64,000 nt of DNA, from assembly GCA_963762115.1 (NCBI GenBank), contig CAVXJH010000005.1:96001-160000 (forward strand). The letters run 5' to 3'. Both the position numbers and the translations under genes were made by a program. Position 1 is the stretch's first letter; each line of letters opens with the position of its first letter. Below the pieces are notes generated by a model. The model was not told the DNA's origin and searched no databases. It saw only the letters and a list, made by a program, of their open reading frames with translations. Shown in pieces: positions 16,581 to 64,000 of this stretch. Origin of the DNA: Candidatus Babeliales bacterium (GTDB lineage Bacteria > Babelota > Babeliae > Babelales > JANWKD01).

Positions 16581-16728
16581 CATATACGCGCGGAAGATTT
16601 GATCCAACAGAATGTTGGGGCCCTTGTATCCAATGTATTGGGCAAACAATACATTGGTGCTGCCCGCATAGGGCCGATAGATTTTATTTAAAAAAATTAT
16701 GAAAAAAATAAAAATTCAAAATAAGTAT

Positions 16729-43731: not shown

Positions 43732-43853
43732 ACTTCATTTCATCGCACCGTAAACACATTTTAATATAAACCATTACTGTCATTAAAAGCAATTTTAATT
43801 ATCCGTGTCAATAAAAACGAGCAACTCTGCACCAATATAAATAACGCGACTTG

Positions 43854-43908
43854 GCAAAGAAAAGTTTATTGTATTATTTGGATAAGCTGGAATCAAAGCT
43901 GCCTCTCT
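43854..43908 (+). pseudogene. Relic fragment of the rep gene
   Basis: gcaaagaaaaagtttattgtattatttggataagctggaatcaaagctgcctctc aligns to rep 58053-58106 (AKKVLLHYLDELESKRPL). Confidence 0.7.
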
Positions 43909-46342: not shown

Positions 46343-46414
46343 TTCCTTTTAAGTACATTATGTATGGAATAGAAGCATGCACAGCATACAAAAAAAATTA
46401 ATAAAAATCATCTA
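46343..46414. repeat. ~72-bp leader block duplicated at 59517-59588
   Basis: ttcctt.taagtacattatg.atg.aatagaa.catgcacagcatacaaaaaaaattaata.aaatcatcta in both. Confidence 0.9.
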
Positions 46415-46513
46415 TATCTCACGAAAGTGAACGTTATTTGCAAATATTTTTTAGTTCAGAAATTTTCATAATATGATATTGATAGGATAAAAGTTTATAA
46501 TAAAAATTAAATT

Positions 46514-47614
46514 ATGTTAAAATATATTGTTGTTTTTAGTTGTATTTTGTCTATAACTATGGATGTAGATGCTATGAGTAAAAAAAGTTTTGCCAGTGAT
46601 AATTATGCTGGTATCCATCCTGAGGTACTTAAGGCTATAATTGATGCTAATCAGGGGCATGATAAGGCTTATGGTGGAGATGCGCTTACTCAGAAAGCTG
46701 TCGAAATTTTTAAAAAACATTTTGGACCACAAATTGACGTGTATTTTGTTCTAACGGGAACTGCTGCAAACGTTTTAGGGTTATCAACCTTATTGAAATC
46801 TTATCAAGGGATCATCTGTGCAGAGACTGCTCATATTAACGTGGACGAGGCGGGTGCTCCTGAAAAATATACCGGATCCAAATTACTTACCATAAAAACC
46901 GCTGATGGCAAGATTACTGTTGATGATATTAAAAATCAATTATTTTCCATGGGCGATCAGCACAAAGTGCAGCCAAAGGTAGTGTCTATTACGCAAGGTA
47001 CTGAATTGGGTACGTTATATACACCAGATGAAATCAAGAAGATAACTGACTTTGCTCACGCACATACTATGTTTGTTCATATGGATGGTGCAAGACTGTG
47101 TAATGCTGCTGCGGCTTTAAATCTGCCCTTAGCGGAAATAACTACTGATGTCGGTATTGATTTACTATCATTTGGTGGAACTAAAGATGGCATGATGCTT
47201 GGCGAGGCTGTCATCTTTTTTAATAAAAATTTATCTGAAGATTTTAAGTTTATTCGTAAACAAGGTATGCAGCTTGTTTCAAAAATGAGATTTATTTCCG
47301 CGCAATTCATAGCACTTTTGTCCAATGATTTATGGAAAAAAAATGCTCAACATGCAAATGCCATGGCACAATTATTAGCGGAAGAGCTCAAAGCTGTTCC
47401 TGAAATTGGACTAAGCAGAAATGTACAAGCGAATGCTGTATTTGCTTATGTTGATCCAGTATTAATCCCTATTCTTCAAGAAAAATATTTCTTTTACATC
47501 TGGGATGAGATTACGTCCGAAGTTCGTTGGATGACTTCGTTTGATACAACACAGGAAGACATCTTGGAATTTGTTAATTTCATTAAGCAAACAATATCAA
47601 AAAAATCTAGTTAA
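46514..47614 (+). CDS. ltaE: Low-specificity L-threonine aldolase (PLP) with N-terminal signal-like extension
   Basis: SFASDNY, TGTAAN, HINVDEAGAPE, HMDGARL, SFGGTK, RKQGMQL.SKMRF. Confidence 0.9.
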   Translation: MLKYIVVFSCILSITMDVDAMSKKSFASDNYAGIHPEVLKAIIDANQGHDKAYGGDALTQKAVEIFKKHFGPQIDVYFVLTGTAANVLGLSTLLKSYQGIICAETAHINVDEAGAPEKYTGSKLLTIKTADGKITVDDIKNQLFSMGDQHKVQPKVVSITQGTELGTLYTPDEIKKITDFAHAHTMFVHMDGARLCNAAAALNLPLAEITTDVGIDLLSFGGTKDGMMLGEAVIFFNKNLSEDFKFIRKQGMQLVSKMRFISAQFIALLSNDLWKKNAQHANAMAQLLAEELKAVPEIGLSRNVQANAVFAYVDPVLIPILQEKYFFYIWDEITSEVRWMTSFDTTQEDILEFVNFIKQTISKKSS

Positions 47615-47744
47615 CCGCCGAGTACTACTTTATACGGCCCTTGTTTTTTATCAGCAATTACTTTACCTTTAAATCATCTTGTTTACATCCAATGCTAACT
47701 CGTTTCATAAGAATGCAAACCGCGTTTAACTTTGCAAAAGCGAA

Positions 47745-50174
47745 TCAATGCTCAGTATATGGTTTAGTTATCAAATATTCTTGAATTAGATATTTTATCC
47801 AATCATTGATGACTAAAGAAAATACAAATGCATAACTCATTATAAAAAAAGTATATGCTATCGGTATTGGTGTAAATTCTAATAAGCCAAGTGTTGTAAT
47901 TAAAAAAGCTCCCACTATATCGATTATTATCGCACTCAGCAATGTTTTGCTTGGCATTGTGCGCCAAAAGTGCCCTCTTTCTCTCACCACAAAAACAGAA
48001 AATATTGCAAAATAAAAGAGTATTTCAAAGCAAAAGGTATTAAGAGAATGCTTATCTACTTGAAGATAGGTAATTCCTATGTATAAAAGTCCAAGTGCTT
48101 CTATTACCATTGCAATTCCTAAAATAAACGCAATGCGACTTACCTGAGCAATATTCCAAGAACATGGCTTTTTTGATATTTCTTCATTATCTGTAGCAAG
48201 AGAGAGTTTTATAAAATCAGTCATAAAAATAAGTAAAAGCATCTCTAATGATGAGATTACATATTCTCCAGTTATTAAAAATGCAATGACAATGAAACCG
48301 GTTTTTAAAACTGTGCGAGAAATTTTATTGATAATCCAAGTATTAACTCGTCGAAAAATGAGTCGCCCCATTTTTATGAGATAATTAATATGATAAAGAC
48401 CAGCTTCAGTTAATACAATGCTGGCTGCTTTTTTTGCTGCATCTGTAGCATCCTGCACAGCAATGCCAACTTCTGCCTGCTTTAAAGCTGGCGCATCATT
48501 GACGCCATCGCCCATCATACCAACAATCTGTCCCTCAATTTGTAATATCTTAACAATTTTGTATTTATCTTCCGGAAAAATTTCAGCAAAAATATTGTTT
48601 TTTTTAACTATTTCTTTAATCTGAACTTGATTTTGATTTTTATAGATTGAAAAATTAACAGCATCCCCTTCAAGATCAACAATTCTAGCTATTTCCTGAG
48701 TAATTGCTAAAGCATCCCCTGTTAATAATTTAATGCTTATTCCCAAGTCTCTTAGTTCAGCTAAAACTTTTTTTGATTCAGGCCTTGGAGGATCTTGTAA
48801 TGCACTAAGACCTACAATAGTTGGTATATTATTAATAGTTTTTGCTATGGCGATAGTGCGATATCCTTTTTTTGCAAAAGAATCTGCATAATTGGTCAAT
48901 TTATTACTTTCTGCATCAGACAATTCAAAATGTTGTATCATTAAATTCAATGAACCCTTATAAACATGAAGAGTCTTTCCATCTTTTTCAAGAAGCACAT
49001 CAGTTCTTTTAGTCGTTGGTTCAAATGGTATCAACTCTTTAATAGTATATGATGCAAGCGATAATTTTTTTTGTTTGGCAGCTTCAATAAATGCAAGGTC
49101 AATCGGATCTAGACTTGCCTCTTGTGAGGCTAATGCACCATAAAGCAGTACGTCATCAGATGAAGTATCAGCAAAGGTAACAATCTCAACAATGGCAAGT
49201 TGATTCAATGTTAAGGTACCAGTTTTATCTATACACAAAGTTGTTAACAGTGCTGCATCTTCAAGAGCATTTAAACGTGATACAAGTACATTCTTCTTTG
49301 ATAAATTTCTTGACCCTATAGCCATACTAATAGTAAACATAGCTGGCAATGCAACTGGTATACCACCTAATAAAAGTACAAGCATAAGCGGTAAAATTTC
49401 TAAGAAAGGAATGCCCTGCTTCAATGAAATCAAAATCACGATTAAAATTATTCCCGTCACAATTGCCAAGAGCCATTTAGTTATTACCGTAATAATTAAA
49501 TCTACATGTGGTTCTGGCGCAGCCTTTTGCACTAATTCTATAGTTTTACCAAAATACGTTTTAGAACCAGTGAGAACAACAAGACCTTTTGCTTGACCAT
49601 GAGTCACGATTGAGCCTGAATAAACATAGTCATTGATATTTTTTTCTATCATTAACGATTCACCAGTTAGCGCTGATTGATCAACTTCCAATGAACTAGA
49701 AATTATCTTTATATCAGCAGGAATAAAATCACCGGTTTTAATACTAATAACATCGCCTGGTACAAGTTCTTTTGCTGGTATTAATAACCATACTCCATCT
49801 CGCAATACCTTAACGTGGATAAATAACTTTTTCTTCAAACCTTCAACAGCATTGGAAGCTAATAATTCTTCCATAAAACTTATAAGAGCATTCAAAAACA
49901 GTAGGGCAGTAACAATATAAAGATCAAAAAAGCGATGCAAAATCCATGAAAGTACAATTATAATTTCAAGCATCCAAGCAGTAATATTCCAAAATTTTTG
50001 TAAAAATTTTTTAATAACACTCGTTTTTTTCTCAGGAATTTCATTATAACCATATTGCTTTAATCTTTGCTGAACTTCTGCTTTATCAAGACCGTTATTA
50101 AAGTCTGTATTGAGTGTTTTTATCAGTTGATCTATATTTTGATGTAAAATTTCTTCGGCAGACATAAGATACAA
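47745..50174 (-). CDS. P-type ATPase, plasma-membrane H+-ATPase-like (P3A)
   Basis: DQSALTGES, GIPVALP, LCIDKTGTLTLN, DPPR, TGD, GDGVNDAPALK, ATDAAK.AA.IVL. Confidence 0.9.
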   Translation of the reverse strand: MYLMSAEEILHQNIDQLIKTLNTDFNNGLDKAEVQQRLKQYGYNEIPEKKTSVIKKFLQKFWNITAWMLEIIIVLSWILHRFFDLYIVTALLFLNALISFMEELLASNAVEGLKKKLFIHVKVLRDGVWLLIPAKELVPGDVISIKTGDFIPADIKIISSSLEVDQSALTGESLMIEKNINDYVYSGSIVTHGQAKGLVVLTGSKTYFGKTIELVQKAAPEPHVDLIITVITKWLLAIVTGIILIVILISLKQGIPFLEILPLMLVLLLGGIPVALPAMFTISMAIGSRNLSKKNVLVSRLNALEDAALLTTLCIDKTGTLTLNQLAIVEIVTFADTSSDDVLLYGALASQEASLDPIDLAFIEAAKQKKLSLASYTIKELIPFEPTTKRTDVLLEKDGKTLHVYKGSLNLMIQHFELSDAESNKLTNYADSFAKKGYRTIAIAKTINNIPTIVGLSALQDPPRPESKKVLAELRDLGISIKLLTGDALAITQEIARIVDLEGDAVNFSIYKNQNQVQIKEIVKKNNIFAEIFPEDKYKIVKILQIEGQIVGMMGDGVNDAPALKQAEVGIAVQDATDAAKKAASIVLTEAGLYHINYLIKMGRLIFRRVNTWIINKISRTVLKTGFIVIAFLITGEYVISSLEMLLLIFMTDFIKLSLATDNEEISKKPCSWNIAQVSRIAFILGIAMVIEALGLLYIGITYLQVDKHSLNTFCFEILFYFAIFSVFVVRERGHFWRTMPSKTLLSAIIIDIVGAFLITTLGLLEFTPIPIAYTFFIMSYAFVFSLVINDWIKYLIQEYLITKPYTEH

Positions 50175-52306: not shown

Positions 52307-52567
52307 CTATACATTATTATCAAGAGATAAAAAATATCGACGTAAAAATATTCTGCCAGCGTTTGATTTTAAATATCATTCAAATTTTAAAGCTTTTGCT
52401 TCTTGATCAAATCCCAGAAAACCTACCAAGTCCCACGGCTTAAAACCTTTAGTATATACTGATTTTCCTGCATTATGAGCTAAAAATCTTTGTTTTAAAT
52501 TAGAAGTAAAACCTATGTAAGTTTTATCGGGAAACGTTCGAGATTTGATATAATAAACATAAAACAT
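52307..52567 (-). pseudogene. GIY-YIG nuclease with premature TGA
   Basis: FYVYYI...TYIGFTSNLKQR..AHN; homology to 59831-60073 continues past TGA 52376-78 (FE*YLKSNAGRIF) to TAG 52307. Confidence 0.85.
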
Positions 52568-52651
52568 ATTTTTTATCTAATTATTGGTTTGCCAGGGGCA
52601 TTAAAGAGTAAGATTTTGACTGGCCTGCCAGGCATTTCCTTCAGAAATGCC

Positions 52652-52759
52652 TGGCGTTACCTAGTAGAGACAGCCCTTAACCATGAGCTCGAATTTAGCA
52701 CTGGTGTGCAAGTCATAAAAACCGTTTGTTCTAGCTTAAATATTGAAATTAATAAATAA
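52652..52759 (+). repeat. att-like direct repeat with start-less conserved reading frame, copy 1
   Basis: WRYLVETALNHELEFSTGVQVIKTVCSSLNIEINK*; homolog at 60222-60332. Confidence 0.8.
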
Positions 52760-52843
52760 TAATTTGCTCTATTTTATTTTGCTTTTTTTGCCATCTCTTG
52801 CTAAAATATACTAAAACTGGCATAATTTAAGTGAGTAGTATAT

Positions 52844-53206
52844 ATGAAACACAAACAACTAATTTGGATTGGTTCTAGCAAAAAAGACCTTAAAGATCTT
52901 CCTGATGAAGTTATAGACACTATGGGATATGGGCTCTACCTCGCACAGAAAGGTGAGCAGCATGAAAATGCTAAGGTGCTCAAAGGCTTTGGAAGCGCTG
53001 GGGTTCTTGAAATAAAAGAATCTGATGCAGCTGGCACCTATCGAGCTGTTTACACAGTTACTATGCCTGAGGTAGTATTTGTATTACATGTATTTCAAAA
53101 AAAGTCTAAAGAAGGAATTAAAACACCGCAACAAGATATAAAACTTATAAAAAGTAGACTTAAATGTGCTCAAGAAATTTATAAAGAAAAATTTAAAAAG
53201 AAATAA
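52844..53206 (+). CDS. RelE/HigB-like (Gp49-type) toxin
   Basis: WIGSSKKDL, GVLEI, GTYRAVY, VLHVFQKKS..GIKTP. Confidence 0.88.
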   Translation: MKHKQLIWIGSSKKDLKDLPDEVIDTMGYGLYLAQKGEQHENAKVLKGFGSAGVLEIKESDAAGTYRAVYTVTMPEVVFVLHVFQKKSKEGIKTPQQDIKLIKSRLKCAQEIYKEKFKKK

Positions 53207-53211
53207 GTGTT

Positions 53212-53640
53212 ATGAAAAAGAATAATGATTATATCATAAGTTCAGGTAATGTATTTGCTGATCTTGGTCTTTCAAATCCAGAAGAAAGACTTGCAAAAGC
53301 AGAATTAGCACGTCAAATTAATAACATTATTAAGCAAAAAAAACTTACTCAAGTTGCCGCAGCTGAACTGCTGGAAATAGATCAACCAAAAATATCTGCT
53401 CTAAGCACTGGAAGATTATCAGGCTTTTCTCTCGAAAGACTTTTTCGTTTTTTAAATATCTTGGGCCAAGATATTACCATTAAAGTTACGCCAAAAACAC
53501 GAACAAAACAAAAAGCTGAAGTTAGAGTCAATGTTCCCAAAACAAAGAAACCTGTAATGATAAAACAACCTCAAGCTGAATCTTCAAGCGTTCGAGCTCT
53601 TCATGCAAAAAAAAAAATAAATAGTTCTCGCTATGGCTAA
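53212..53640 (+). CDS. XRE-family HTH antitoxin
   Basis: SSGNVFADLG, LTQVAAAELLEIDQPKISAL..G.LSGFSLERL. Confidence 0.88.
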   Translation: MKKNNDYIISSGNVFADLGLSNPEERLAKAELARQINNIIKQKKLTQVAAAELLEIDQPKISALSTGRLSGFSLERLFRFLNILGQDITIKVTPKTRTKQKAEVRVNVPKTKKPVMIKQPQAESSSVRALHAKKKINSSRYG

Positions 53641-53926
53641 AGAATTAAAAGAATTTAAACATTATTTTTCAGAAAAGCTCAAAGATCTTAGGTATGCAAT
53701 TGCGTATCTTAATGAAGCATTAGCAAATGAGGATAAGCGAGTTTTATTAGTAGCATTAACAAATGTTTGTGAAGCTCAAAAGGGAAATATAAAAACAAAA
53801 AGTTTCCAAAAATATCTTGAAAAACGCTTGGATAAAGACGAGATTACCGAAATTGAAAGACAAGCACTGTTAGAAATTGATATTCTTCAATCTATGCAAA
53901 ATTCAATATCAGACGCTATTGACTGA
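53633..53926 (+). CDS. Antitoxin-like fragment/chimera
   Basis: EKLKD..YAIAYLNEAL...LLVAL resembles addiction-module antidote N-termini; no HTH visible. Confidence 0.45.
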   Translation: MAKELKEFKHYFSEKLKDLRYAIAYLNEALANEDKRVLLVALTNVCEAQKGNIKTKSFQKYLEKRLDKDEITEIERQALLEIDILQSMQNSISDAID

Positions 53927-54043
53927 TTAACATTGGTTTTATCAAATTTAAATTTTAATGATTTTTTTGCATACTCATTTTTATTGAGTGAATAAGGGCA
54001 AACACCGGATCGCATACAATGGTTGGGCCATAATAAGTGTGCA

Positions 54044-54394
54044 TTAAGGGATTACTATAACCATAAATGATGGAAAATGCAGAGGGAAATGGGTATATAA
54101 TGGAATATAGTAATGATGCAATTTTTTGGGTAAAAAAACTGCAATGATTCCTGAAACCGCAAAAAGACCTGCAGCAGTCAATCCTGAATATGGCAATTTA
54201 CTTTCATAGGCAGTACATCCGGCAATGCTAAAACTAAGTGCTGTTGCTGCCAAGAGTATGTTGGTAATTTTTATGCTTAGCGTTGTTTCTTCTTCTGCAA
54301 CTTGACAGTCACTTTCATGAGCGAGCAAAGTATAATTCTGACCGCTAAAGCATAAAAATATAAAAATTAACATTCTTAATTTGAACGTTGTCAT
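54044..54394 (-). CDS. Small exported/membrane protein
   Basis: Signal peptide plus two TM segments. Confidence 0.6.
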   Translation of the reverse strand: MTTFKLRMLIFIFLCFSGQNYTLLAHESDCQVAEEETTLSIKITNILLAATALSFSIAGCTAYESKLPYSGLTAAGLFAVSGIIAVFLPKKLHHYYIPLYTHFPLHFPSFMVIVIP

Positions 54395-54396
54395 AT

Positions 54397-54960
54397 TTAG
54401 TTACTTTCACTCGTATTGTGTTTTTTGAGAAATCGCTGAGCCTTCTCTTTATCTTTTTCAAAACCACTAATTTTGTTTACTGTATAAAAATAGCTTATAT
54501 CTTCATTACTATAATTTAACAATATTCCAATGAGATAATGATTTAAATCCTTTTGAGGATTACGAGCATATTTTCTTGCAAATATATGTTCATACTCCTC
54601 AAGCATTAATGCCTGTTCTTTGCCTTCAGAGGTATAAAGAATTAATGAGGCTTCTTCCGGCTTATTATTAAAATTAAGGCCATTTTTTACTTCAATACTA
54701 TGTATTCCTAAATTTTCGATAGGTAAAAATTCTTTTGCAATATATGAAAAATCTTTTTTAGTTCCCCAATATACTTTTTTATACCCAGCAATCATACATT
54801 TTATTCGACAATTAACATTGTCATTACCACTCAAATCATCATGTACATTTCTTGCTGCCCCGCAACATTGTTCCGAAGGAATGAAATCTTTATGCCAAAT
54901 ATTTGAAGGAAAATAAGCAAAGACAGCTGAGCTTAAAATGAATAATAGAAATTTTATCAT
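54397..54960 (-). CDS. Hypothetical exported protein
   Basis: Signal ending VFA; IGILLNYS.EDI motif. Confidence 0.65.
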   Translation of the reverse strand: MIKFLLFILSSAVFAYFPSNIWHKDFIPSEQCCGAARNVHDDLSGNDNVNCRIKCMIAGYKKVYWGTKKDFSYIAKEFLPIENLGIHSIEVKNGLNFNNKPEEASLILYTSEGKEQALMLEEYEHIFARKYARNPQKDLNHYLIGILLNYSNEDISYFYTVNKISGFEKDKEKAQRFLKKHNTSESN

Positions 54961-55217
54961 AAAGTTTATCTTATTTTTAATATGTTTTTTTATTTTAAAA
55001 GTAGCAATACTGATGCATTAAGTAAAGATCATTTAATTAAAACAAGGTCCTTTTATTCTTTTTTATTGCCAATATAGGCTCTTCAAATAAGCCAACCATG
55101 TTAAATTATTACTGTTTTAACCTGTAAAGCTATAGGCATCTAGAACTTTTTTGATTTTCTGTTAAACTAATAAATGATTATTAATCATAAAAATAACAAA
55201 TTAAATGAGGTTATAAC

Positions 55218-55619
55218 ATGGATTATCACAGATTTTTGGCTATATTAGCTGTCTTTTTCTTATTTCAGAATACTTTTCCGGGAAATGATGAAGTTTCACA
55301 AACTTCCTTCAATACAAGATCAGAAAACCCTATACAAGCCCCCGGTCCTATTATGATCCCATTAAACAATAGTCTCCCATTTTATTCCGTCTCAATCGCT
55401 AAAAAATTGTACAACGGTACTCCCTTAACTCAAGAAGAAAAAAGATTTCCCAAAATAGCATTAGGCCTTACTTGTGCTATAAACGCACTTTTTATACCTG
55501 CCTGTTTAAAAATGCAAGGTCACCCCGTTTCTGTCGGTAATGTTGCTGCGTTAACTATTGTTGCATTGCCAATAACTTGGTTCTTTTCTGAATTTTTAAA
55601 TTGTGAATGGGATGATTAA
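55218..55619 (+). CDS. Small exported/membrane protein
   Basis: RBS gaggt; signal plus two C-terminal TM segments. Confidence 0.65.
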   Translation: MDYHRFLAILAVFFLFQNTFPGNDEVSQTSFNTRSENPIQAPGPIMIPLNNSLPFYSVSIAKKLYNGTPLTQEEKRFPKIALGLTCAINALFIPACLKMQGHPVSVGNVAALTIVALPITWFFSEFLNCEWDD

Positions 55620-55675
55620 AAAATAAGAAATTTTAATAACACATTATTTCGGTCTAATACTACTGGGAGAGTTTC

Positions 55676-56145
55676 TTGCATTTATTTCCAAATCGCATAT
55701 ACTCTCCGATTGTAGCAATCAAAGCACTCTCTTCATCAAAAGGAACAATCATGTTCTTGTTCAACAGAACGCAGATTCTGTCTCTCACCTCACAAAATCA
55801 AATTACATCCATCCTCATTACCTTTCGAATTTCCGAAACATATATCGGGCTCGATGAGCAGGAAAGCTGCTACACAGCTTAATTCCAATTAATTTGTTCC
55901 TACATTCAAGAATGGTTTTATAAAACCATAAAACTAAAAAAAGAAATTAAGATATTTCTAAAATATCTTGAGGAGATTTATTTATATGAAGAATCCCCCT
56001 AGAGTAAATATATTGTTATCTGTTGATGATAAAAACGATTTACTGATTTTTTTGTGATACTTATCGCCGTCGATAGAAGAGTTAATGCAAAACCAAGAAA
56101 TAAACCTAAAGCAAAGAAATAGGCTCGCAATCGCGGGCCTTGTTT
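55676..56145 (+). pseudogene. Degenerate copy of the element backbone block (two frameshifted small ORFs + hairpin)
   Basis: Homologous to 63237-63738 with single-base indels in A-runs and a 30-bp deletion between gcaaagaaa direct repeats. Confidence 0.85.
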
Positions 56146-56235
56146 CTTGTGAGCAATTGCGCTACCTTTGAATACATTCGAACATCGCCTGTTAACATAT
56201 GCTTTACCATGTGTGCGTTATCATTCTGAGTGTGT

Positions 56236-57024
56236 TTAAGAATACTCTTGTTGAAAGCCCGCATTATGCTCGGCGATACTTTCTTTTAATTTATTAATCT
56301 CAGATTGTATGTATCCATTAAGTGTTCTAGATGAGCGAGGAGTCGTTTTAGCATATAAAGCATTAATTTGTTGTATATTTTTATTACGTAAAGCTTCTCT
56401 TATTCTTATATCTTCATCACGACTGTTTTTTACAATCTGAATCATTTCTTCAGCCTGTGCACAAGATGCTTCCATTTTAACTCGTGTACTATCCATTGCT
56501 TTCATATACAGTCTTTTTTCTTCATTACCATCAACCCTTTTTGCTTTCATAAATACTTGAAGCCTCTTAATTTGTAAAAAGAATTTATCTTCCTCATCAA
56601 GATTTTGTAATAAGAGTAATCTATGTTCTCTTTTTTTGGTTTTTAATAAAAAATCAATATCACGAATTATAAGTCGTCCTATAAAATTATTGGTAGTTTC
56701 ATGTAATTCTGACAAGTGAGAAAATCGTGCCGGTACTTTTGATATTTGTGTGAGGTAACAAAGTAATCCATATGTTGATTCCAAAGATAGCATAGACTCA
56801 GAGAATGAAGCTTGTGGATTTTTAAAAAATATATTTTGTTCATCTGAATGTAGCCCTCTGTTAAGTAATGCATCAGCAAAACAGTTTAGAAGATGCAAGT
56901 CTTCAAAAAATTCTTTTTTATGCGAAGACTCTTCTCTTGAGGAATTTTCGAGTTGCTTTTCCATTGCAGCTATGGATGTTGAAATAAATAATATAAAAAA
57001 GAATGTTTTTTTGAATGTAAACAT
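56236..57024 (-). CDS. Hypothetical exported helical protein
   Basis: Signal ending IAA then MEK. Confidence 0.75.
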   Translation of the reverse strand: MFTFKKTFFFILFISTSIAAMEKQLENSSREESSHKKEFFEDLHLLNCFADALLNRGLHSDEQNIFFKNPQASFSESMLSLESTYGLLCYLTQISKVPARFSHLSELHETTNNFIGRLIIRDIDFLLKTKKREHRLLLLQNLDEEDKFFLQIKRLQVFMKAKRVDGNEEKRLYMKAMDSTRVKMEASCAQAEEMIQIVKNSRDEDIRIREALRNKNIQQINALYAKTTPRSSRTLNGYIQSEINKLKESIAEHNAGFQQEYS

Positions 57025-57275
57025 AAAAACCTTTCATGAAAAAATATTGCAGCAATAATGTAGGTCGAATATATCACAATTTTTTCTTTATGTTAGCATG
57101 CCGCTATTTTTTTTATTCGGTTCAAAAAATAAACATGATTCAAAGTTACTTATACCATATTTACGCATATTAAAAATAAGCTCGCAATCGCGGGCCTTGT
57201 TTTTTGTGATCAATTACACTACCTTTGGATACCTGAGAGCATCATATGTCAACGCATATTCACAGAATGCAACGA

Positions 57276-58394
57276 ATGATCGACACCATAGTTTTTACTT
57301 TAACCAAAGACAAATTTCACATCATTCAGCCCGATAAATTCCAACCATCTGCAACACTTTTGTTATCGCAGTTTTCTCACACAATTCAAGCAAAACAGAA
57401 CCCAACACAAAAAGAACTCCTGAAAGGGGAATGCAAAAAACCTCGCTTAACATTGCAAAAGCGCATTAACGCTCAAGGATTGTTTGATCTCATGCTGAAA
57501 GCTGAACTCTCTTTGCCAAAGCTTTTATTTGGCAATAATGTCGATGAGCTTTGCTATAAAGATTTTCCGGCAATCATCAAAAAATTAGTTGTTGTGTTGC
57601 AAGAAATGGGCATTGAAACAACAGCAAAAGCTCTAGAGAATGCACCGCTCTCTAGCGTTCATTATGCAAAGAATATCCCCCTAACTGACGGCTCTACGCC
57701 CTATCATTTCATCAACAAAATTAAAGAAGCAAATATCAAAATCTCTCTCGACACAAATCAAACTGATTATCGCAACGATGGCCACAGTTATAAATGGCAC
57801 TGCAATTCATATGAAATTGTTTTCTATGACAAGATTTTGGATCTTGAAAAGGCCAAGAAGAGCGGCAAAAGATCGATTGATAAAGAGAGTGGAATAAACC
57901 ATTCGCTTTTCCCCTTTTTCAGGAAAAAAAAGAAATTTGAGATCCTTCGGATGGAAGTTCGATTAAACAAGCGACAGAAAATAAAACAGCTGTTTAAAAC
58001 ATTGGGAATAAAATCGGATTTGACGCTGAAGAAATTGTTCAAGCCTGCCATTGCAAAGAAAGTGTTGTTGCATTATTTGGATGAACTGGAATCAAAGCGA
58101 CCTCTCATACTTGATTATAAATCAGATAATGAAACAGCATTGCTTGCTGATTTAGTTTTCTATAATCCTGAGTTAAGCCCAACGAAGATTTTGCAGCTGT
58201 TTGGATTAAAGCAAGCGCTCAATGTTATGAGCCCTAGGGAGTTAAGAATGTTGTTTGCAAAGTATAATCAAAGATCCTGGTATAAAATTATGGCTGATGC
58301 AAATAAAGTTAAGTTGCCGATTGTGCAACAACCTTTAGATGTTATTCGTAAACAATTGATTGTATTTAAATCCTTAAAATACTTAAATCTATAA
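57276..58394 (+). CDS. Putative rolling-circle replication initiator (phage/plasmid gene II/X, Phage_CRI-like)
   Basis: MIDTI start (shared with copy at 63815), ELSLPKLLFGNN, FYDK, LRMEVRL. These motifs are typical of gene II/X-type Reps (by eye). Confidence 0.65.
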   Translation: MIDTIVFTLTKDKFHIIQPDKFQPSATLLLSQFSHTIQAKQNPTQKELLKGECKKPRLTLQKRINAQGLFDLMLKAELSLPKLLFGNNVDELCYKDFPAIIKKLVVVLQEMGIETTAKALENAPLSSVHYAKNIPLTDGSTPYHFINKIKEANIKISLDTNQTDYRNDGHSYKWHCNSYEIVFYDKILDLEKAKKSGKRSIDKESGINHSLFPFFRKKKKFEILRMEVRLNKRQKIKQLFKTLGIKSDLTLKKLFKPAIAKKVLLHYLDELESKRPLILDYKSDNETALLADLVFYNPELSPTKILQLFGLKQALNVMSPRELRMLFAKYNQRSWYKIMADANKVKLPIVQQPLDVIRKQLIVFKSLKYLNL

Positions 58395-59054
58395 CATTTC
58401 TCGTGGGTCAAGTTCTTTGTTCATCTGCTTTGACATTGCTTTTTTACATTCTTTTAATTGAGGCATGATAAAGCTTGCTCGATTAATTATATTCATTAAT
58501 TGTTCATATGAATAACTTGAGTATTGATCAGTATAAATCTCATTTTTTACTAATCGATATAAATCCATTTGGTGCTCACGTGCTTCATTCGCATATTTAT
58601 CAACTTCAGATGAGATAAATAAAGCAGATTCCTCATGATAATTGTGAAAAGAAGCAATATTATTTAACCCAAGGAAATTATCAGCATCGTCTATTCTTTC
58701 TAGACACATTCTAATCAAATTTCTTAAATCTTCTGCCGTGATTAGTGTATCGTTAGCTTGTTTCTCTATTATTTTTCTGTTTATAGTTTCAAAAATTATA
58801 TAAAGTGATCCAGCTTCTCGCAGTAGTTGATAAAGTTTAGGATAAATTTCATATAAATTTTTAGTCCTAATCTGTAAATGCAAATAATTTCGTTGCATTT
58901 CAAACTTTATTTTTTCAGCTTCTTTATTAATTAAGATTACAGCCCTTTTATAAAGCAAATAATTACAAATAACTCCTGTAAATATAGCAAAGATTGCTCC
59001 ATTTATTACTGGAGTTAATTGATAAGTTTCTATAAGTGAAAGAATATAATTCAT
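58389..59054 (-). CDS. Hypothetical protein with N-terminal TM
   Basis: 221-aa ORF, one TM then helical domain. Confidence 0.7.
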   Translation of the reverse strand: MNYILSLIETYQLTPVINGAIFAIFTGVICNYLLYKRAVILINKEAEKIKFEMQRNYLHLQIRTKNLYEIYPKLYQLLREAGSLYIIFETINRKIIEKQANDTLITAEDLRNLIRMCLERIDDADNFLGLNNIASFHNYHEESALFISSEVDKYANEAREHQMDLYRLVKNEIYTDQYSSYSYEQLMNIINRASFIMPQLKECKKAMSKQMNKELDPREML

Positions 59055-59102
59055 TATTATATTTTCTGTTTGAGAATAATGGAAATGGTTTACTGCAGTT
59101 AA

Positions 59103-59510
59103 TCATGAAATTAAACATCTATTTTCTGATTTATCAGTTTTTGGATCTTGTGGAGGGTGAATAAATCCTGTTTCAGCTATTTGTTGTGCAAAAATAATAC
59201 CAATATAATCTTTTTTTATTATATTTTTTTCAGAATCAATAATATTCATCTTTGTTAAAGCAACTTCCACGTCTGGATCAAATTCAATTGAAGAACATTT
59301 ATATTTCATAATCAATTGCATCAAGAGGTCTGATTTTTTCTCAACAGGCCAATCTAAAATCTCAAAATCTTTATTAAAATTGGCAACAAAAACTTTAAAG
59401 TTTTCATTTGCATGAACATCCTCAACAGTTTTTTTTGCTCGCTCCATGGCTAAACATTCTGTCAAACTTAAACTAAAGATTACAAAAAGCATCATTTTTT
59501 TTATAACCAT
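59103..59510 (-). CDS. Hypothetical exported protein with C-terminal CaaX-like motif
   Basis: Signal ending CLA then MER; ends CLIS*. Confidence 0.7.
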   Translation of the reverse strand: MVIKKMMLFVIFSLSLTECLAMERAKKTVEDVHANENFKVFVANFNKDFEILDWPVEKKSDLLMQLIMKYKCSSIEFDPDVEVALTKMNIIDSEKNIIKKDYIGIIFAQQIAETGFIHPPQDPKTDKSENRCLIS

Positions 59511-59654
59511 GAATTATTCCTTATAAGTACATTATGAATGAAATAGAATCATGCACAGCATACAAAAAAAATTAATATAAATCATCTACTATCCCTCCCC
59601 CTTTTCGTGATATGCTAGGCACGTTTTAACATAACCCACTAAGCAAGAGCAATC

Positions 59655-59816
59655 ATGAAAGCAATTTTAATCGCCCGTGTAAGCACAGAAGAACAAAAAG
59701 AAGCTGGCAATTCACTCCCAGCACAAGTAGCTCGTCTGGAGAAATACTGCCAAGTCAAAGATTTTCCAATTATTAAAAGCTTTAGCTTTGATGAAAGCGG
59801 TTATAAAAACCTGTGA
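59655..59816 (+). pseudogene. Serine recombinase N-terminal fragment (53 aa)
   Basis: Hand translation MKAILIARVSTEEQKEAGNSLPAQVARLEKYCQVKDFPIIKSFSFDESGYKNL*; catalytic RVST motif. Confidence 0.9.
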
Positions 59817-59830
59817 GAATTCCCCTGTGA

Positions 59831-60073
59831 TTACCAGAACCTTTTTTTAGTGAATGCTCTTCCAGAACCGGATTTAAGATATTTTTCAAATGCTACAGCC
59901 TGATCAAGATTATTAAAAGTAATCGACGAAATAAGTTCCCATGGTCTGAATTGAGCAGTGTGAGCTGACCCGCCTGAATTATGAGTTTTAAGACGTTCTT
60001 GAAGATTGTCAGTATGGCCAATATAAGTTTGTTTGGAAAAATTTAGAGATCGCAAAAGATATACGTAATACAT
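59831..60073 (-). CDS. Small GIY-YIG nuclease
   Basis: YYVYLLRS...TYIGHTDNLQERL..HNSG...RPW.L...FEKYLKSGSGR. Confidence 0.92.
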   Translation of the reverse strand: MYYVYLLRSLNFSKQTYIGHTDNLQERLKTHNSGGSAHTAQFRPWELISSITFNNLDQAVAFEKYLKSGSGRAFTKKRFW

Positions 60074-60221
60074 AAAACCTTTTTTGAAAAAAGGGCCGTG
60101 CCAGCCCGCCTCCGTTAAAACTTCGGCGCGCAGCTTTCGCCTTTGTTATTAATACTTCTTTATAAAATATAAATCATTTTAAAGAGAAGACTGGCCTGCC
60201 AGCTGAAGCCTTGGCGAAAGC

Positions 60222-60332
60222 TGGCGTTACCTAGTAGAGGCAATCTTAAACCATGAAGTTGAATTTAGCACGGGTGTGCAAGTCATAAAAACCGTTTGTT
60301 CTAGCTTAAATATTGAGATTGACAAACAATGA
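60222..60332 (+). repeat. att-like direct repeat with start-less conserved reading frame, copy 2
   Basis: WRYLVEAILNHEVEFSTGVQVIKTVCSSLNIEIDKQ*. Confidence 0.8.
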
Positions 60333-60343
60333 TTTGTAATATT

Positions 60344-61726
60344 TTATTTTGCTTTTGAAAGTTCATTCTGTGCACTTGTGCTTGGTGGTAAAGATACTTT
60401 TTTAGTAGGAATAGGAAATTTTGATAAATTATTTACAGAAGAACTTGTTGCCATAAGGATTTTGGCATTTATATTTAATACTTCTTTGCCATCACTTTTT
60501 TTATCGTAAGGCTTATCAGAATTAGATAAAGTTAATGCGGAAGAATTTTGTAATTGACAAAAGTAGGCAAACATTAAAGGATATGAATAAAAAACATTTT
60601 CTTGAAATCCAATTTCATGGATTTTCCATACATGTGCATTATTAAGAATACTTTTTGAATCTGATTTTTCTTTTATATCTTCTAAAAAACTGCATGCTCG
60701 TAAAATATTTGCCTTTATTATCATTAACTTTATAGCCTTAAATAATTGTTTATTATAAGTGAATATTTGAAAGCTATTTTCAAATTTTAACTTATTTGGA
60801 TAATCGGCTACCACAAAGCCATAGTTATCTAAATTTTCTAAAGTTTTATTATCAAACAATTGTGATTTTGTCATTGGTTTTGCATCAAAGTCAGTATAAA
60901 CAAAACATAAATCTCTATTTTGTCGAGTAGATTCTTCAGCTATAATAACTCTTAATAGATCTGCACGAAAAAAAACCGGAATTTCAGAAGAAAAAATTTC
61001 AGGATTTTTCTTAACTCTGGTTAATGTTCTTATATCGTTTAGTTCTATTTTGGCTATTTTGCTCCCATGTGCTGCAACTTTTTGATTGATGAGAAGTTGA
61101 GTATTTTCAATCATTTTATCGGCTGTAAAAGAACTATCAAACCACAAATTGATAGTTCCTTCGGGATTTTTTTTTGACCACATTATAATTGTATCCAAAA
61201 ACTGTAATCCAAAATTATTTTTATTATTTGATGGGTATATATAAGTTTGATCAATAGTAGCTTGCCTATTGATCCACATTAAATTAATCGAATATTGTTT
61301 TGGATAATTTTTATGTTGGGTGAAAAAAAATTGTTTTATTTTTGATCCCAAAGAACAATTTTCTTTATGGTCGGAACAAGATTTTGATGAACCATTAGAG
61401 TGCTTGTTCGGTTGATCGGCGTAATATTCTTCTTTTAAATAAGCTCCTATGGAAGTTCCCAATATTATAGGCAACAGAAAGTTTCTTGATGAATAATCAT
61501 TATTATCTTTTTCTTGGGATGCAAGAATTACAAGAGGTCGAGAAGAGCGCTTAGTAGAATATAATCTTGAGAGAAGCCTAGAATGAAAGAGATTATTAGT
61601 AATCTGCTTTGCATTGAACGGTGCTAATCGGTTGAATTGCCATATGCTGCTACGTTTATTCATCGCGAAGGCAGATTGATTTAATAAACAAAGTGATAAC
61701 TTTATAATTAGTATTTTTTTTATCAT
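60344..61726 (-). CDS. Exported DxD glycosyltransferase-like protein (GT-A, toxin/effector-like)
   Basis: INLMWIN, INLWFDS, RADLLR, FVYTDFD, FENS; signal peptide, basic Ser/Arg-rich segment, one TM. Confidence 0.7.
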   Translation of the reverse strand: MIKKILIIKLSLCLLNQSAFAMNKRSSIWQFNRLAPFNAKQITNNLFHSRLLSRLYSTKRSSRPLVILASQEKDNNDYSSRNFLLPIILGTSIGAYLKEEYYADQPNKHSNGSSKSCSDHKENCSLGSKIKQFFFTQHKNYPKQYSINLMWINRQATIDQTYIYPSNNKNNFGLQFLDTIIMWSKKNPEGTINLWFDSSFTADKMIENTQLLINQKVAAHGSKIAKIELNDIRTLTRVKKNPEIFSSEIPVFFRADLLRVIIAEESTRQNRDLCFVYTDFDAKPMTKSQLFDNKTLENLDNYGFVVADYPNKLKFENSFQIFTYNKQLFKAIKLMIIKANILRACSFLEDIKEKSDSKSILNNAHVWKIHEIGFQENVFYSYPLMFAYFCQLQNSSALTLSNSDKPYDKKSDGKEVLNINAKILMATSSSVNNLSKFPIPTKKVSLPPSTSAQNELSKAK

Positions 61727-61747
61727 AGTGATTAGTTTTAAATTAAG

Positions 61748-62077
61748 TTAAACCTTTTTAGATTTTGTTTTATTTACCGATGTCTTTTTAGGTGACAAAG
61801 AAATTTTAATTGAATAACCCAAAGCATCAGCAACCTGAGCTAATTTTCCAACAGATGTTGTGGTGTATCCACCCTTTTCTAACCGTGCAATAGCAGGTTG
61901 TTGAAGATGAAGGCGCTCAGCTAGTTCTGATTGAGAATAACGTGCTTTTTTTCTTGCCTTTATAAATTTTTCAAGTAATGCAAATTCTGGTTCCAATAAG
62001 TCATATGCTTTTTTCACTTCTTCATTTTGCAAAGCTCTTTTTTTGAATGCTTCAAAGCTTGGTCTTTTATTCTTCAT
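61748..62077 (-). CDS. XRE-family HTH antitoxin (HigA-like)
   Basis: ARKKARYSQSELAERL...QPAIARLEKG. Confidence 0.9.
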   Translation of the reverse strand: MKNKRPSFEAFKKRALQNEEVKKAYDLLEPEFALLEKFIKARKKARYSQSELAERLHLQQPAIARLEKGGYTTTSVGKLAQVADALGYSIKISLSPKKTSVNKTKSKKV

Positions 62078-62399
62078 TTTTTACCTCTTTCATACGACGT
62101 ATTGCTATTTCCATTTCTCTTGGTGGAGTTTTTTGTGTTTTCTTTATAAATTCGCTCAGTACTATTACAATTTTCCCTTTTATAATACAAAAAGGAGCCC
62201 GAGCGATACCTTCAGGGCCTTTTACTCTAATCTCAAAAAGTCCTTTTTTTAATGGCTTAATATGCGGCATGCCTAATTCATCAGGGCCCATTTTTTCAAT
62301 AAGTTCAGCTATTTTTAAAAACTTAACCTTTAGATGTATCGGCCATTCATCAATACCCTTTTCAACCTTAGTACTATAAAACTCAACTTTCCAGCTCAT
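62067..62399 (-). CDS. RelE/HigB-like (Gp49-type) toxin
   Basis: Start MSWKVEFY; LGMPHIKPL..GLFEIR, FIKKTQKTP.RE. Confidence 0.88.
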   Translation of the reverse strand: MSWKVEFYSTKVEKGIDEWPIHLKVKFLKIAELIEKMGPDELGMPHIKPLKKGLFEIRVKGPEGIARAPFCIIKGKIVIVLSEFIKKTQKTPPREMEIAIRRMKEVKNEE

Positions 62400-62543
62400 A
62401 TAAATCTCGCTTTTTTTAACAAAACACCTTATAATTATAACAAATATATTATATTTTCGCAATATAATTAGCAACAACTTAAGAAAGCCAGAAGCCGTAA
62501 TATTAAGCAAAAATAATTTTGATAGAGTAAAGGAATAAACAAA

Positions 62544-63221
62544 ATGCTTCATGATATAGAGAAAAAAATAATAATTTTAAAAAATAGTTCCCCCAAATCA
62601 ATACCAATGGCTATCTCTCCAAATATAGATCTTGCTAGAGCAACCGTATTAAGAGAATGTATTTTTAAAAAGATTGAAGAGCTAGCAGAGAGCATACATG
62701 AAATGTGTAGCAAGAATAGATTAGTATCTGCTATGTCCTTACAAAGGGCATTGATGGAAACCCAAGCATTATTTTGGGTATTCTTGAAAAAAATTGAAGA
62801 GGCAATCAAAACAAATAAATTGGATGATTTTAAGAACTTTTTAACCAAAGCTTTATCTGGTGCGCGTTCAGATGTAGCGACTAAGAAATTTGGTAGGCCA
62901 CAATCAAACAATGCATTAACATATATTGATCAAGTGAATAAAATAATACCTGGTTATCGAGAATGTTACGATCTTCTTTCTGAATTTGTACATCCCAATT
63001 CTGCAGGTGTGCGTAATGTATATAATAAACTTGATTGGAATAATAGAGAAATTCATTTTGGTGATAATAGAGAAAAAATAAACATTGATTTTGTTATAAA
63101 GAATCTTGATATTTCTCTTGATTGGTTTATTAGTGAATATAACCGATCTGCAGATTTACTTAACCAATATAGTGTTTTAAGCTTTACTAATTTTGATAAT
63201 AATGAGAAACAATTAAGATAG
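62544..63221 (+). CDS. Hypothetical helical protein (DUF5677/HEPN-like motif)
   Basis: RALMET ... YDLLSEFVHPN. Confidence 0.6.
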   Translation: MLHDIEKKIIILKNSSPKSIPMAISPNIDLARATVLRECIFKKIEELAESIHEMCSKNRLVSAMSLQRALMETQALFWVFLKKIEEAIKTNKLDDFKNFLTKALSGARSDVATKKFGRPQSNNALTYIDQVNKIIPGYRECYDLLSEFVHPNSAGVRNVYNKLDWNNREIHFGDNREKINIDFVIKNLDISLDWFISEYNRSADLLNQYSVLSFTNFDNNEKQLR

Positions 63222-63236
63222 CTATATAAAACTTCC

Positions 63237-63452
63237 TTGCAAATATTTCCAAATCGTATAATATCTTCCTTTGTAGTAATCAAAGCACTCTCTTCATCAA
63301 AGGAACAATCATGTTCTTGCTCAACAGAACTCAGATTCTGTACTCCAACTCACAAAATCAAATTCCATCCAGCCTCATTATCTTTCAAACATCTGAAACA
63401 TATATCGGGCTCGATAAGCAAGAAAGCTGCTACACAGCTTAATTCCAATTAA
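63237..63452 (+). CDS. Small element-backbone ORF (uncertain)
   Basis: TTG start; homolog at 55676 is frameshifted. Confidence 0.35.
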   Translation: MQIFPNRIISSFVVIKALSSSKEQSCSCSTELRFCTPTHKIKFHPASLSFKHLKHISGSISKKAATQLNSN

Positions 63453-63545
63453 TTTGTTCCTAATTCCTAGAATGGTTTTTATAACCATAAAAATTAAAAA
63501 AAGAAATTAAGATATTTCTAAAATATCTTGAGGAGATTTATTTAT

Positions 63546-63788
63546 ATGAAGAATCCCCCTAGAGTGAATATACTTTTGTCTATTGATGATAAAAAACGAC
63601 TTACTGATTTTTTTGTAATACTTATCGCCGTTGATAGAAGAGTTAATGCAAAACCAAGAAATAAACCTAAAGCAAAGAAAAGCGCAAAAGCAAAAACTAA
63701 GCGCAAAGAAATAGGCTCGCAATCGCGGGCCTTGTTTTTTATAATCAATCGTATTACTCTTGAGTTTTTGAAAAGCCTTTTATTTTAG
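63546..63788 (+). CDS. Small basic element-backbone protein
   Basis: MKNPPRVNILLSIDDKKRLTDFF...; RBS gagga; frameshifted homolog at ~55986. Confidence 0.55.
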   Translation: MKNPPRVNILLSIDDKKRLTDFFVILIAVDRRVNAKPRNKPKAKKSAKAKTKRKEIGSQSRALFFIINRITLEFLKSLLF

Positions 63789-63814
63789 CAATGCTTTAAA
63801 GAACACAACAGCGA

Positions 63815-64000
63815 ATGATCGACACCATAGTTTTTACGTTAACCAAAGACAAGTTCAACATCATTCACCCCGATAAATTCCAGCCCTCTGCAACACTTTT
63901 GTTATCAACGCATTCTCACACAATCCAAGCAAAACAAAACCCAACACGAAAAGAACTCCTGAAAGGGGAATGCAAGCCTCGTTTAACATTGCAAAAGCGC
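63815..64000 (+). CDS. Second rep copy (5' part)
   Basis: MIDTIVFTLTKDKFNIIHPDKFQPSATLLL..., close homolog of 57276. Confidence 0.85.
   Translation, partial: MIDTIVFTLTKDKFNIIHPDKFQPSATLLLSTHSHTIQAKQNPTRKELLKGECKPRLTLQKR

Follow-up and report, generated by a model that had tools for sequence, protein, structure and literature searches.

The 64,000-nucleotide stretch analysed here (the window; G000:C5:96001-160000, where G000 is the Candidatus Babeliales genome that holds it, 1.53 Mb and 95% complete) carries two related islands of 7-8 kb arranged head-to-tail at the 3' end of a tRNA-Glu(TTC) gene. They are probably a tandem of two members of a widespread family of cargo islands, 5-13 kb in size and placed at tRNA 3' ends, in which the gene for a large serine recombinase (LSR) is split and which likely integrate and excise through this enzyme and likely replicate by the rolling-circle mode. 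The family itself is real, widespread and apparently an undescribed variant of tRNA-targeting integrative elements; a literature search, with subscription journals and supplements outside its scope, found no published description of it. Babelota are described as a phylum of intracellular parasites of protists. The named homologues of the replication protein (Rep) of the window belong to Candidatus Babeliales or Dependentiae, and the bacterium that hosts the tandem is likely a parasite of protists.

Positions above 64000 are extended coordinates, obtained by subtracting 96000 from the C5 position. Phylum-wide counts were drawn from 261 Babelota genomes; L-numbers denote fetched loci with relatives, G109 and G110 related genomes, and X1 to X4 sequencing runs examined as assembled contigs.

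Attachment sites and the integrase tail

Unit 2 measures 7,962 bp from its left (attL) to its right (attR) attachment site, and 7,160 bp of unit 1 survive. A preliminary description of this DNA had proposed two units with a shared order of features, starting 7570 bp apart, and every feature that it listed was found in its place. The repeat at their left ends (52651-52786 and 60221-60356) is 88% identical at this spacing, and a backbone segment (55672-56119 and 63233-63680) is 90% identical. The examination of downstream sequence that it had recommended was also rewarding: unit 2 runs beyond the window through its rep gene (rep2), a 533-aa cargo gene and a full LSR gene (LSR2, 484 aa, 66741-68195), and ends inside the tRNA-Glu(TTC) gene on the opposite strand. 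Unit 1 is a mosaic, in which a 262-aa cargo gene is flanked by two copies of a terminator/promoter module.

The last six bases of tRNA-Glu (plus strand, 68184-68189) recur at 52652 and at 60222, and an open frame of 35-36 codons begins behind each of these core copies. What had been noted as an att-like repeat is thus real and was identified as attL, encoding the C-terminal tail of the LSR. A profile built from 10 tails located the same tail to the left of rep in most relatives. Family-wide, the last 30-36 LSR codons are stranded at attL, so that the chromosomal LSR lacks its tail. In all 23 pairs of attachment sites, defined by a tail that starts at a tRNA-end triplet and a tRNA within the locus (tail hits without either were excluded), the attL core equals the end of the cognate tRNA over 6-8 nt, compared with a mean of 7.0 and a maximum of 15 pairs in 10,000 shuffled pairings. 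Thirty junctions chosen among 40 fetched loci show the C-terminus of the LSR extending into the end of a tRNA for Glu, Asp, Arg, Gln or Asn. The LSR is joined directly to the tail in two loci (L056 and L062), in one of them as a whole 522-aa protein. Taken together, the matching cores, the stranded tails and the joined LSRs argue from sequence that the attP site lies inside the LSR gene, so that integration would remove the tail and leave the tRNA whole. Formation of a circle would then restore the full LSR, and loss or gain of the tail may regulate the direction of the reaction. Phage Mx8 and SSV1 provide other known cases of an integrase split by its own attachment site.

LSR2 has Resolvase, Recombinase and zinc-ribbon/coiled-coil regions with Ser10 and cysteines at 282-285 and 302, and integration and excision would likely be carried out by the element's own enzyme. 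The serine recombinase N-terminus reported at the end of unit 1 was confirmed: 59655-59816 matches LSR2 over 52 codons, with the DNA match extending to 59811. Over these surviving codons LSR1 and LSR2 differ by no amino acid at a synonymous divergence (pS) of 0.26. Unit 2 thus has its own integrase and both borders, whereas unit 1 has lost attR and most of its LSR.

The closest parallel is found in the ssrA islands of Dehalococcoides with the recombinase DsiB (PMC3146451), as far as their account describes them. There too the 3' end of the LSR gene overlaps the attachment site, so that an uninterrupted gene may exist only on the circle or where an adjacent island has inserted, and tandems without transfer genes occur at the 3' end of one stable RNA. 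However, those islands target tmRNA with a 20-bp repeat rather than tRNA ends with 6-8 bp, their six-gene module (with DsiA, RecF-, ParB- and Mom-like genes) is absent from the conserved clusters seen here, and, unlike the Rep elements, they are described without a replication gene (PMC3146451).

Rep protein and spread of the family

The two Rep proteins (57276-58394 and 63815-64933) are 91% identical. The AlphaFold model of Rep has a predicted local distance difference test score (pLDDT) of 89.8, and its best structural match among 48,161 chains is RepDE (4cwc; Z 9.0, root-mean-square deviation 4.7, 228 residues aligned), followed by RepSTK1 (Z 7.3) and then TBP. RepDE also ranks first in Foldseek, the top two matches having probabilities of 0.89-0.92. 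In RepDE, D46, D142 and E214 are reported as metal ligands and Y191 and K193 as catalytic, alongside R140, R189 and R212 (PMC4797284). Mapping by motif and secondary structure, as distinct from residue-level superposition, places D46/D142/E214 on D3/H129/E227 and Y191/K193/R212 on Y184/K186/R225. Y184, K186 and E227 are invariant in 134 of 134 diverse relatives, and D3 is kept in 120 of 121. A Rep without a catalytic tyrosine had been considered and was rejected, since RepDE numbering places Y184 on Y191. The Rep_trans fold and the invariant YxK tyrosine agree with the gene II/X-like character assigned earlier, and the suggested search of 57276-58394 revealed the initiator fold by structure. 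Atlas clusters of Rep relatives carry PF05144 on 25-31% of their members. The likeness to RepDE and RepSTK1 (PMC4797284) and to gene II/G2P proteins (PF05144) accordingly comprises a TBP-like fold, a catalytic YxK and counterparts of D46, R212 and E214. On the strength of this model, Rep likely supports rolling-circle replication of the element.

Several observations weigh against this assignment or against an active element. The Foldseek E-value for RepDE is just 0.011. Searches of Pfam, PHROG and NCBIfam gave no family for the window protein, PF05144 is matched by only 4 of 81 relatives, and the alignment of the Rep profile with M13 gene II is not significant (E 0.04-0.07); within that alignment Y184 falls on Y197, which we take to be the catalytic tyrosine of M13 gene II. 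The position of RepDE D142 is occupied by His in 128 of 134 relatives and by Asp in the other 6, counterparts of R140 and R189 are not kept in the family, and identity to these initiators is 9-12%. A distant archaeal branch of the Rep_trans fold is reported to tolerate loss of the middle acidic residue (PMC13107129). Both window Reps deviate at Y54, which is kept in 79 of 81 aligned proteins, so these particular copies may be impaired. A k-mer search found no shared non-coding origin motif, no attP joint indicative of a circle occurred in the assembled contigs of four runs (contigs drop rare forms), and sites of this kind can also hold elements that lack this Rep (L185; G000:C3). No Rep relative was found among solved sequences, and plasmids gave one chance hit.

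Rep is present in 62 of the 261 Babelota genomes and has 1,279 relatives among 50%-identity representatives. The 79 fetched rep loci include 11 that bear Patescibacteria-group names, at 51-57% Rep identity. A co-oriented LSR lies downstream of rep in 61 of these 79 loci, which bears out the expected synteny, and 9 of the remaining 18 have less than 2.1 kb of flank. The tRNA targets seen are Glu, Asp, Arg, Gln and Asn, and 45 elements with a mapped attL range from 4.7 to 13.4 kb (median 8.0). Cargo varies freely on both sides of rep, and apart from rep, LSR and small regulators no gene cluster was seen to be conserved. Three genes occur mostly in Patescibacteria-type copies (names by eye): one SpoVG-like (25 loci), one Xis-like (21) and one of ~350 aa (18). 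In most Babelota-type copies, rep is preceded only by a small open reading frame (ORF), a terminator-like hairpin and a promoter-like motif, and the window units show this reduced architecture. The promoter-like motif was found upstream of rep in 33 of 50 loci against a shuffle mean of 0.5, although the motif was defined after seeing the data; a simple promoter scan did not call the rep promoter.

The preliminary view of a small integrative element with a gene II/Rep_trans-type Rep, an LSR and swappable cargo, accumulating at one site, is therefore supported, but two of its details need revision. The backbone is conserved between the units (90%) and, among the relatives compared, occurs only in the genome family of G000, so it is not a family-wide core. 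Both toxin-antitoxin (TA) pairs are present, but they are cargo and are missing from most relatives. A 43-codon ORF in the backbone (~55751-55882 and 63311-63442) has a good Shine-Dalgarno-like motif and the same first ten codons in seven copies; it was not called a gene because the frame is lost across these copies.

Related elements occupy comparable sites. The tandem of G109 at tRNA-Glu is similar but has its two TA modules exchanged in position; at the same tRNA-Glu site, G110 carries a 4.3-kb element with a 95% identical LSR and no rep. A third element in G000 (G000:C3:125930-135679, L223) lies at tRNA-Gln and has an LSR of 67% identity, an attL tail and a Toprim/DUF3987 protein that replaces Rep. 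A decayed island was also seen at tRNA-Arg(TCT) (G000:C5:2893-12775), with a 3' LSR piece, a 5' LSR piece by a GIY-YIG gene and an inverted backbone copy. Tycheposons (bioRxiv 10.1101/2020.12.28.424599), as described, are likewise small cargo elements at tRNA genes that have swappable replication modules, form tandem islands and lack transfer genes. They differ in using mostly tyrosine recombinases that face inward and attachment sites of ~40 nt, whereas the serine recombinase here faces the tRNA and uses a core of 6-8 nt; they are also described as replicating with a primase/helicase, unlike the Rep elements (bioRxiv 10.1101/2020.12.28.424599).

GIY-YIG cassettes beside clipped integrases

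In a simple tandem, LSR1 would be continuous with the unit 2 tail. What is seen is an LSR1 that breaks off after codon 52; the stop codon of an inverted GIY-YIG gene follows 19 bp on, and palindromes and attL2 come next. A GIY-YIG gene with a palindrome lies to the left of each attL (52376-52567 and 59831-60073), a feature absent from the preliminary description. This cassette is a host-side feature found in 162 of the 261 genomes, and in 25 of the 30 best loci it sits just downstream of a tRNA or tmRNA end (20) or of attL (5). Two or three GIY-YIG genes or pieces stand in tandem behind one tRNA/tmRNA end in L165, L169, L178, L179, L180 and L196. The same kind of palindrome without a nuclease gene was seen after the 3' ends of tRNA-Phe, tRNA-Leu and tRNA-Lys (C3:44493-44536, C3:68969-69020 and extended 68316-68391). 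At attL2 itself, the palindromes are no more stably folded than shuffled sequences.

Of the 60 distinct GIY-YIG genes that the fetched loci contain, 13 have a converging LSR match within 110 nt, two of them with a tRNA between. Eleven of the 60 adjoin a 5' LSR fragment that ends at codon 16-173, and none directly abuts an intact LSR end. The junctions lie in L155, G000:C5:10499, L129, L135, L159, L177, L195 (twice), L200, L205 and L209. With two pairs counted once each as local duplicates, they amount to ~9 events in 6 genomes, and L050 holds a further remnant. In L200 the arrangement of the window recurs, including an attL tail that follows the nuclease. Run X1 has a contig that agrees with 59830-60415 (GIY-YIG gene 1, attL2 and cargo) at 584 of 586 letters but has another left flank that begins at the GIY-YIG stop codon; this flank matched nothing in the window or in 210 loci.

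The layout suggests an order of events. Unit 1 would have integrated first. A second GIY-YIG/palindrome cassette would then have arrived at the tRNA end, with loss of everything in LSR1 after codon 52 together with attR1, a loss that would have fixed unit 1 and left a fresh tRNA end, at which unit 2, with both borders and its intact LSR, could integrate. That the nuclease itself causes the clipping is a tentative hypothesis, somewhat on the doubtful side. Still less likely is a full ratchet between two selfish elements that share the tRNA 3' end, in which an LSR/Rep element with an integrase-tail switch brings in cargo and an Ssn-like GIY-YIG cassette homes in, clips the integrase, fixes the cargo and rebuilds the target.

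The cassette resembles the Ssn nucleases (PMC11893778), as described, in being a small, single-domain, stand-alone GIY-YIG gene by hairpin repeats that also occur without the gene. The main text on Ssn does not mention tRNA, whereas the hairpin here starts at tRNA CCA ends. SsnA is reported to cut single-stranded DNA a few bases upstream of its hairpin (PMC11893778), and by analogy a cut of this type at the GIY-YIG cassette would fall near the tRNA end.

The chance is close to even, however, that the LSR1/GIY-YIG junction is passive, produced by ordinary decay or by an empty-site allele from a relative that replaced the tRNA-proximal DNA, with no role for the nuclease. Internal deletion or frameshift of the LSR is common without a GIY-YIG gene nearby (14 of 20 loci with short LSRs), in two more of these loci 440-850 nt separate the fragment from the nuclease, and the competence protein ComEC is present in G000. 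The junction count is also biased, because the sample was enriched by 20 loci fetched for their short LSR frames; only 2 of 29 non-self best GIY-YIG loci show the junction. A passive origin is in turn harder to reconcile with 11 breaks at most 110 nt away from the nuclease stop, which involve divergent nucleases (41-80% mutual identity among the nine compared) and three tRNA targets, with the lack of any 3' LSR piece directly beside a nuclease stop, and with the X1 flank, which switches at the nuclease stop itself.

Transfer, cargo and genomic setting

The islands encode no cell-to-cell transfer of their own. Our best guess, held with somewhat less than even confidence, is uptake of free circles or DNA through natural competence. 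As the preliminary description had stated, no capsid, morphogenesis ATPase or conjugation gene was found; specifically, Zot, VirB4 and a coupling protein were not found in G000, and 128 scanned cargo proteins include no capsid, Zot, VirB4 or canonical relaxase. Integrative and mobilizable elements (IMEs) and related cis-mobilizable elements (CIMEs) of Bacillota (PMC5704250) are alike in having their own integrase, a rolling-circle-type initiator and tandem accretion with decayed elements, and their serine-recombinase members also use very short repeats. It is nevertheless unlikely that the islands are IMEs in which Rep acts chiefly as a MobT-like relaxase for transfer by a helper conjugation system. 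Rep_trans relaxases do occur in many streptococcal IMEs, some of them without a coupling protein, tandems with decayed elements are known for IMEs (PMC5704250), and the near-identical architecture in two phyla at 51-57% Rep identity implies transfer. But neither VirB4 nor a coupling protein was seen in G000 or among the 128 cargo proteins, and Rep is closer to the gene II branch by Pfam share. Rep could act as a relaxase, and no oriT came to light. Furthermore, IMEs are described as using helper conjugation, for which G000 yielded no system, and their site-specific serine recombinases as disrupting dispensable genes (PMC5704250), whereas the islands leave the tRNA whole and have an interrupted integrase gene.

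The cargo is unrelated between the two units (no BLAST match), and their Gp49/HTH_37 pairs are 31% and 33% identical over 55-residue stretches and oppositely oriented, as noted before. A simple heuristic finds signal-peptide-like starts in 6 of the 9 non-TA cargo ORFs of at least 100 aa in the window (7 by eye). The earlier statement that most cargo genes have signal peptides fits the window by this measure, but the fraction is about that of the local background (20 of 32). Across the family it is below the host background: 40 of 147 Babelota element genes (27%), compared with 35 of 72 host genes beyond the tRNA and 574 of 1265 ORFs genome-wide in G000 (45%), and 4 of 82 Patescibacteria-type element genes. 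For Chromulinavorax, signal peptides are reported in 44% of genes genome-wide (PMC6561590). Two enzymes of normally cytoplasmic types, a threonine-aldolase-like protein (46514-47614) and the PaaK-like CoA ligase (64940-66541), have such starts, like many other genes in G000. The proposal that the element delivers host-directed effectors was for this reason not supported.

Of the 147 cargo proteins, 128 were scanned for families, once 19 had been set aside as TA repeats, near-duplicates, pieces of rep or frames that are likely spurious. Sixty have no Pfam family, and the others include 14 nuclease or restriction-modification proteins, 7 TA, 6 ankyrin, 3 Fic and 1 WD40 protein; the remainder are enzymes, transporters, regulators, transposases and families of unknown function. 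Family elements elsewhere carry APH-like kinases, an aminoglycoside nucleotidyltransferase-like gene and a beta-lactamase-fold gene (L115:972-3546, L143:11811-12347 and L106:3323-5236). The 460-aa protein encoded at 60344-61726 is a candidate effector glycosyltransferase: its model (pLDDT 89.8 over the last 334 residues) matches YeGT, Legionella SetA, PaToxG and SseK1 (E 1e-6 to 3e-4, TM 0.3-0.4), and glycogenin also. It has 27 database matches and a patchy presence in 15 of the 261 genomes, and none of 11 other loci has rep or LSR in the short, 1.5-kb flanks of the gene. An element specialised in delivering secreted host-directed effectors is quite improbable on these grounds: the secreted look of the window cargo, the fold of the 460-aa protein and the ankyrin and WD40 proteins speak for it, but the family-wide deficit of signal-peptide-like starts, the share of nuclease, TA and Fic proteins and the distribution of the glycosyltransferase do not. 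The cargo looks like a sample of host accessory genes rather than a payload dedicated to effectors.

It is very unlikely that the units are defective filamentous prophages or satellites of inoviruses. Matches to PF05144/phrog_702 in a few relatives and a compatible element size would fit them, but G000 has no Zot, no Rep relative occurs in IMG/VR or 50,697 phage records, no family of capsid or morphogenesis proteins is represented among the 128 cargo proteins (such scans could overlook very short coat genes), and no conserved gene cluster accompanies rep, LSR and the small regulators.

Table 1. Features of the tandem islands and of older remnants; positions above 64000 are extended coordinates.
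Feature	Positions	Strand	Basis
Decayed older-unit remnants: LSR-start-like stretch, then rep fragment (43854-43907, 83% identical to rep1 58053-58106)	43775-43907	+	Repeat comparison; LSR-like start by eye
Remnant of sequence upstream of LSR1	46343-46418	+	92% identical to 59517-59593
Remnant: rep promoter-like motif and 15-codon rep fragment	47635-47755	+	
GIY-YIG gene 0, host-side cassette, premature stop at codon 64	52376-52567	-	PF01541, E 2e-10
Palindrome from old tRNA CCA end, B arm of attL1	52617-52654	.	DNA fold z -4.16; 0/200 shuffles as stable
attL1: 6-bp core 52652-52657 = tRNA-Glu end, then 35 codons of LSR tail	52652-52759	+	
Unit 1 TA cargo: Gp49/RelE toxin, HTH_37 antitoxin, HI1420-like antidote fragment	52844-53926	+	Family search
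Unit 1 cargo: three ORFs, no known family, signal-peptide-like starts	54044-55619	.	
Backbone 1: 43-aa ORF after Shine-Dalgarno-like motif, frameshifted small ORF, terminator-like hairpin, promoter-like motif	55672-56196	+	
262-aa cargo gene between two terminator/promoter module copies	56236-57024	-	
Terminator-like hairpin overlapping promoter-like motif, upstream of rep1	57174-57226	+	
rep1, 372 aa, predicted Rep_trans/gene II-type rolling-circle initiator; D3, H129, Y184, K186, R225, E227	57276-58394	+	
Unit 1 right-hand cargo: 221-aa and 135-aa ORFs, no known family	58389-59510	-	
LSR1, clipped after codon 52	59655-59811	+	PF00239
GIY-YIG gene 1, 80 aa, intact; stop codon 19 bp from LSR1 break	59831-60073	-	PF01541, E 2e-15
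Two imperfect palindromes between old tRNA CCA end and GIY-YIG gene 1 (B arm of attL2)	60090-60224	-	
attL2: 6-bp core 60222-60227 and 36 codons of LSR tail	60222-60332	+	
460-aa cargo, predicted GT-A glycosyltransferase, invariant DxD, candidate host-directed effector	60344-61726	-	
Unit 2 TA cargo: Gp49/RelE toxin and HTH antitoxin	61748-62396	-	Family search
225-aa cargo, DUF5677	62544-63221	+	Family search
Backbone 2: intact small ORF (63549-63788) and terminator/promoter module	63233-63788	+	
rep2, 372 aa (window ends at 64000)	63815-64933	+	
533-aa PaaK-like CoA-ligase cargo	64940-66541	-	E 1e-11, far below family cut-off
LSR2, intact, 484 aa	66741-68195	+	PF00239 and PF07508; phrog_95, E 3e-63
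tRNA-Glu(TTC)	68184-68261	-	3' end = attR core 68184-68189

Beyond extended position ~70,050, C5 resembles algal plastid DNA joined to a bacterial contig up to the contig end, with an accD-like carboxyl transferase, a cysA-like ABC ATPase, a ycf3-like TPR and a minD-like ORF (names by eye), four tRNAs and many short repeats; this end is a probable chimeric assembly. From ~41,000 to extended 68,600, the island and tRNA-Glu/tRNA-Lys are inverted relative to G109 and G110, in which mgtE lies directly upstream of tRNA-Lys, by inversion or misassembly. An Rfam search of 43-64 kb gave no match. Other repeats of the window comprise a 190-nt direct pair 1313 bp apart within 999-2501 and direct and inverted copies of 28-90 nt at 3923-4261, 14736-15137 and 16562-16660. 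Run X2, possibly the source sample, was not counted as independent evidence, and X3 and X4, with small shares only, were left unused.

An origin of the two units by segmental duplication or through an assembly artefact, as the chimeric end of C5 and the inverted island might suggest, is extremely improbable, given the divergence of the reps (pS 0.39, with a nonsynonymous-to-synonymous rate ratio, dN/dS, of 0.115), the unrelated cargo, the similar tandem in G109 with its TA modules swapped, and the pieces of both attL versions and of the junction region held by X2. From their sequences we read rep1 and rep2 as old, selected homologues. With an initiator fold in Rep, a full recombinase after unit 2 and no simple segmental duplication, the points on which the preliminary description had staked its reading came out in its favour.

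Babelota and Patescibacteria are host-bound and mostly uncultured, and the route by which they acquire genes is an open question that this family addresses. Of 261 Babelota genomes, 62 carry this defined vehicle, whose borders can be mapped and whose Reps share 51-57% identity between the two phyla. An integrase that targets the CCA end of tRNAs through a 6-bp core can be tested directly, the natural pair of LSRs with and without the tail would be useful for studies of serine-integrase directionality, the His variant of the Rep_trans active site is offered for study, and the components are possible parts for genetic tools in both phyla. The recurring pattern of a nuclease beside a clipped LSR may have frozen the older island in place; if causal, this junction would add a new mechanism by which an element can immobilise another one. 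Should the ratchet prove true, it would give the obligate intracellular Babelota a route to build defence and effector islands without phage or conjugation.

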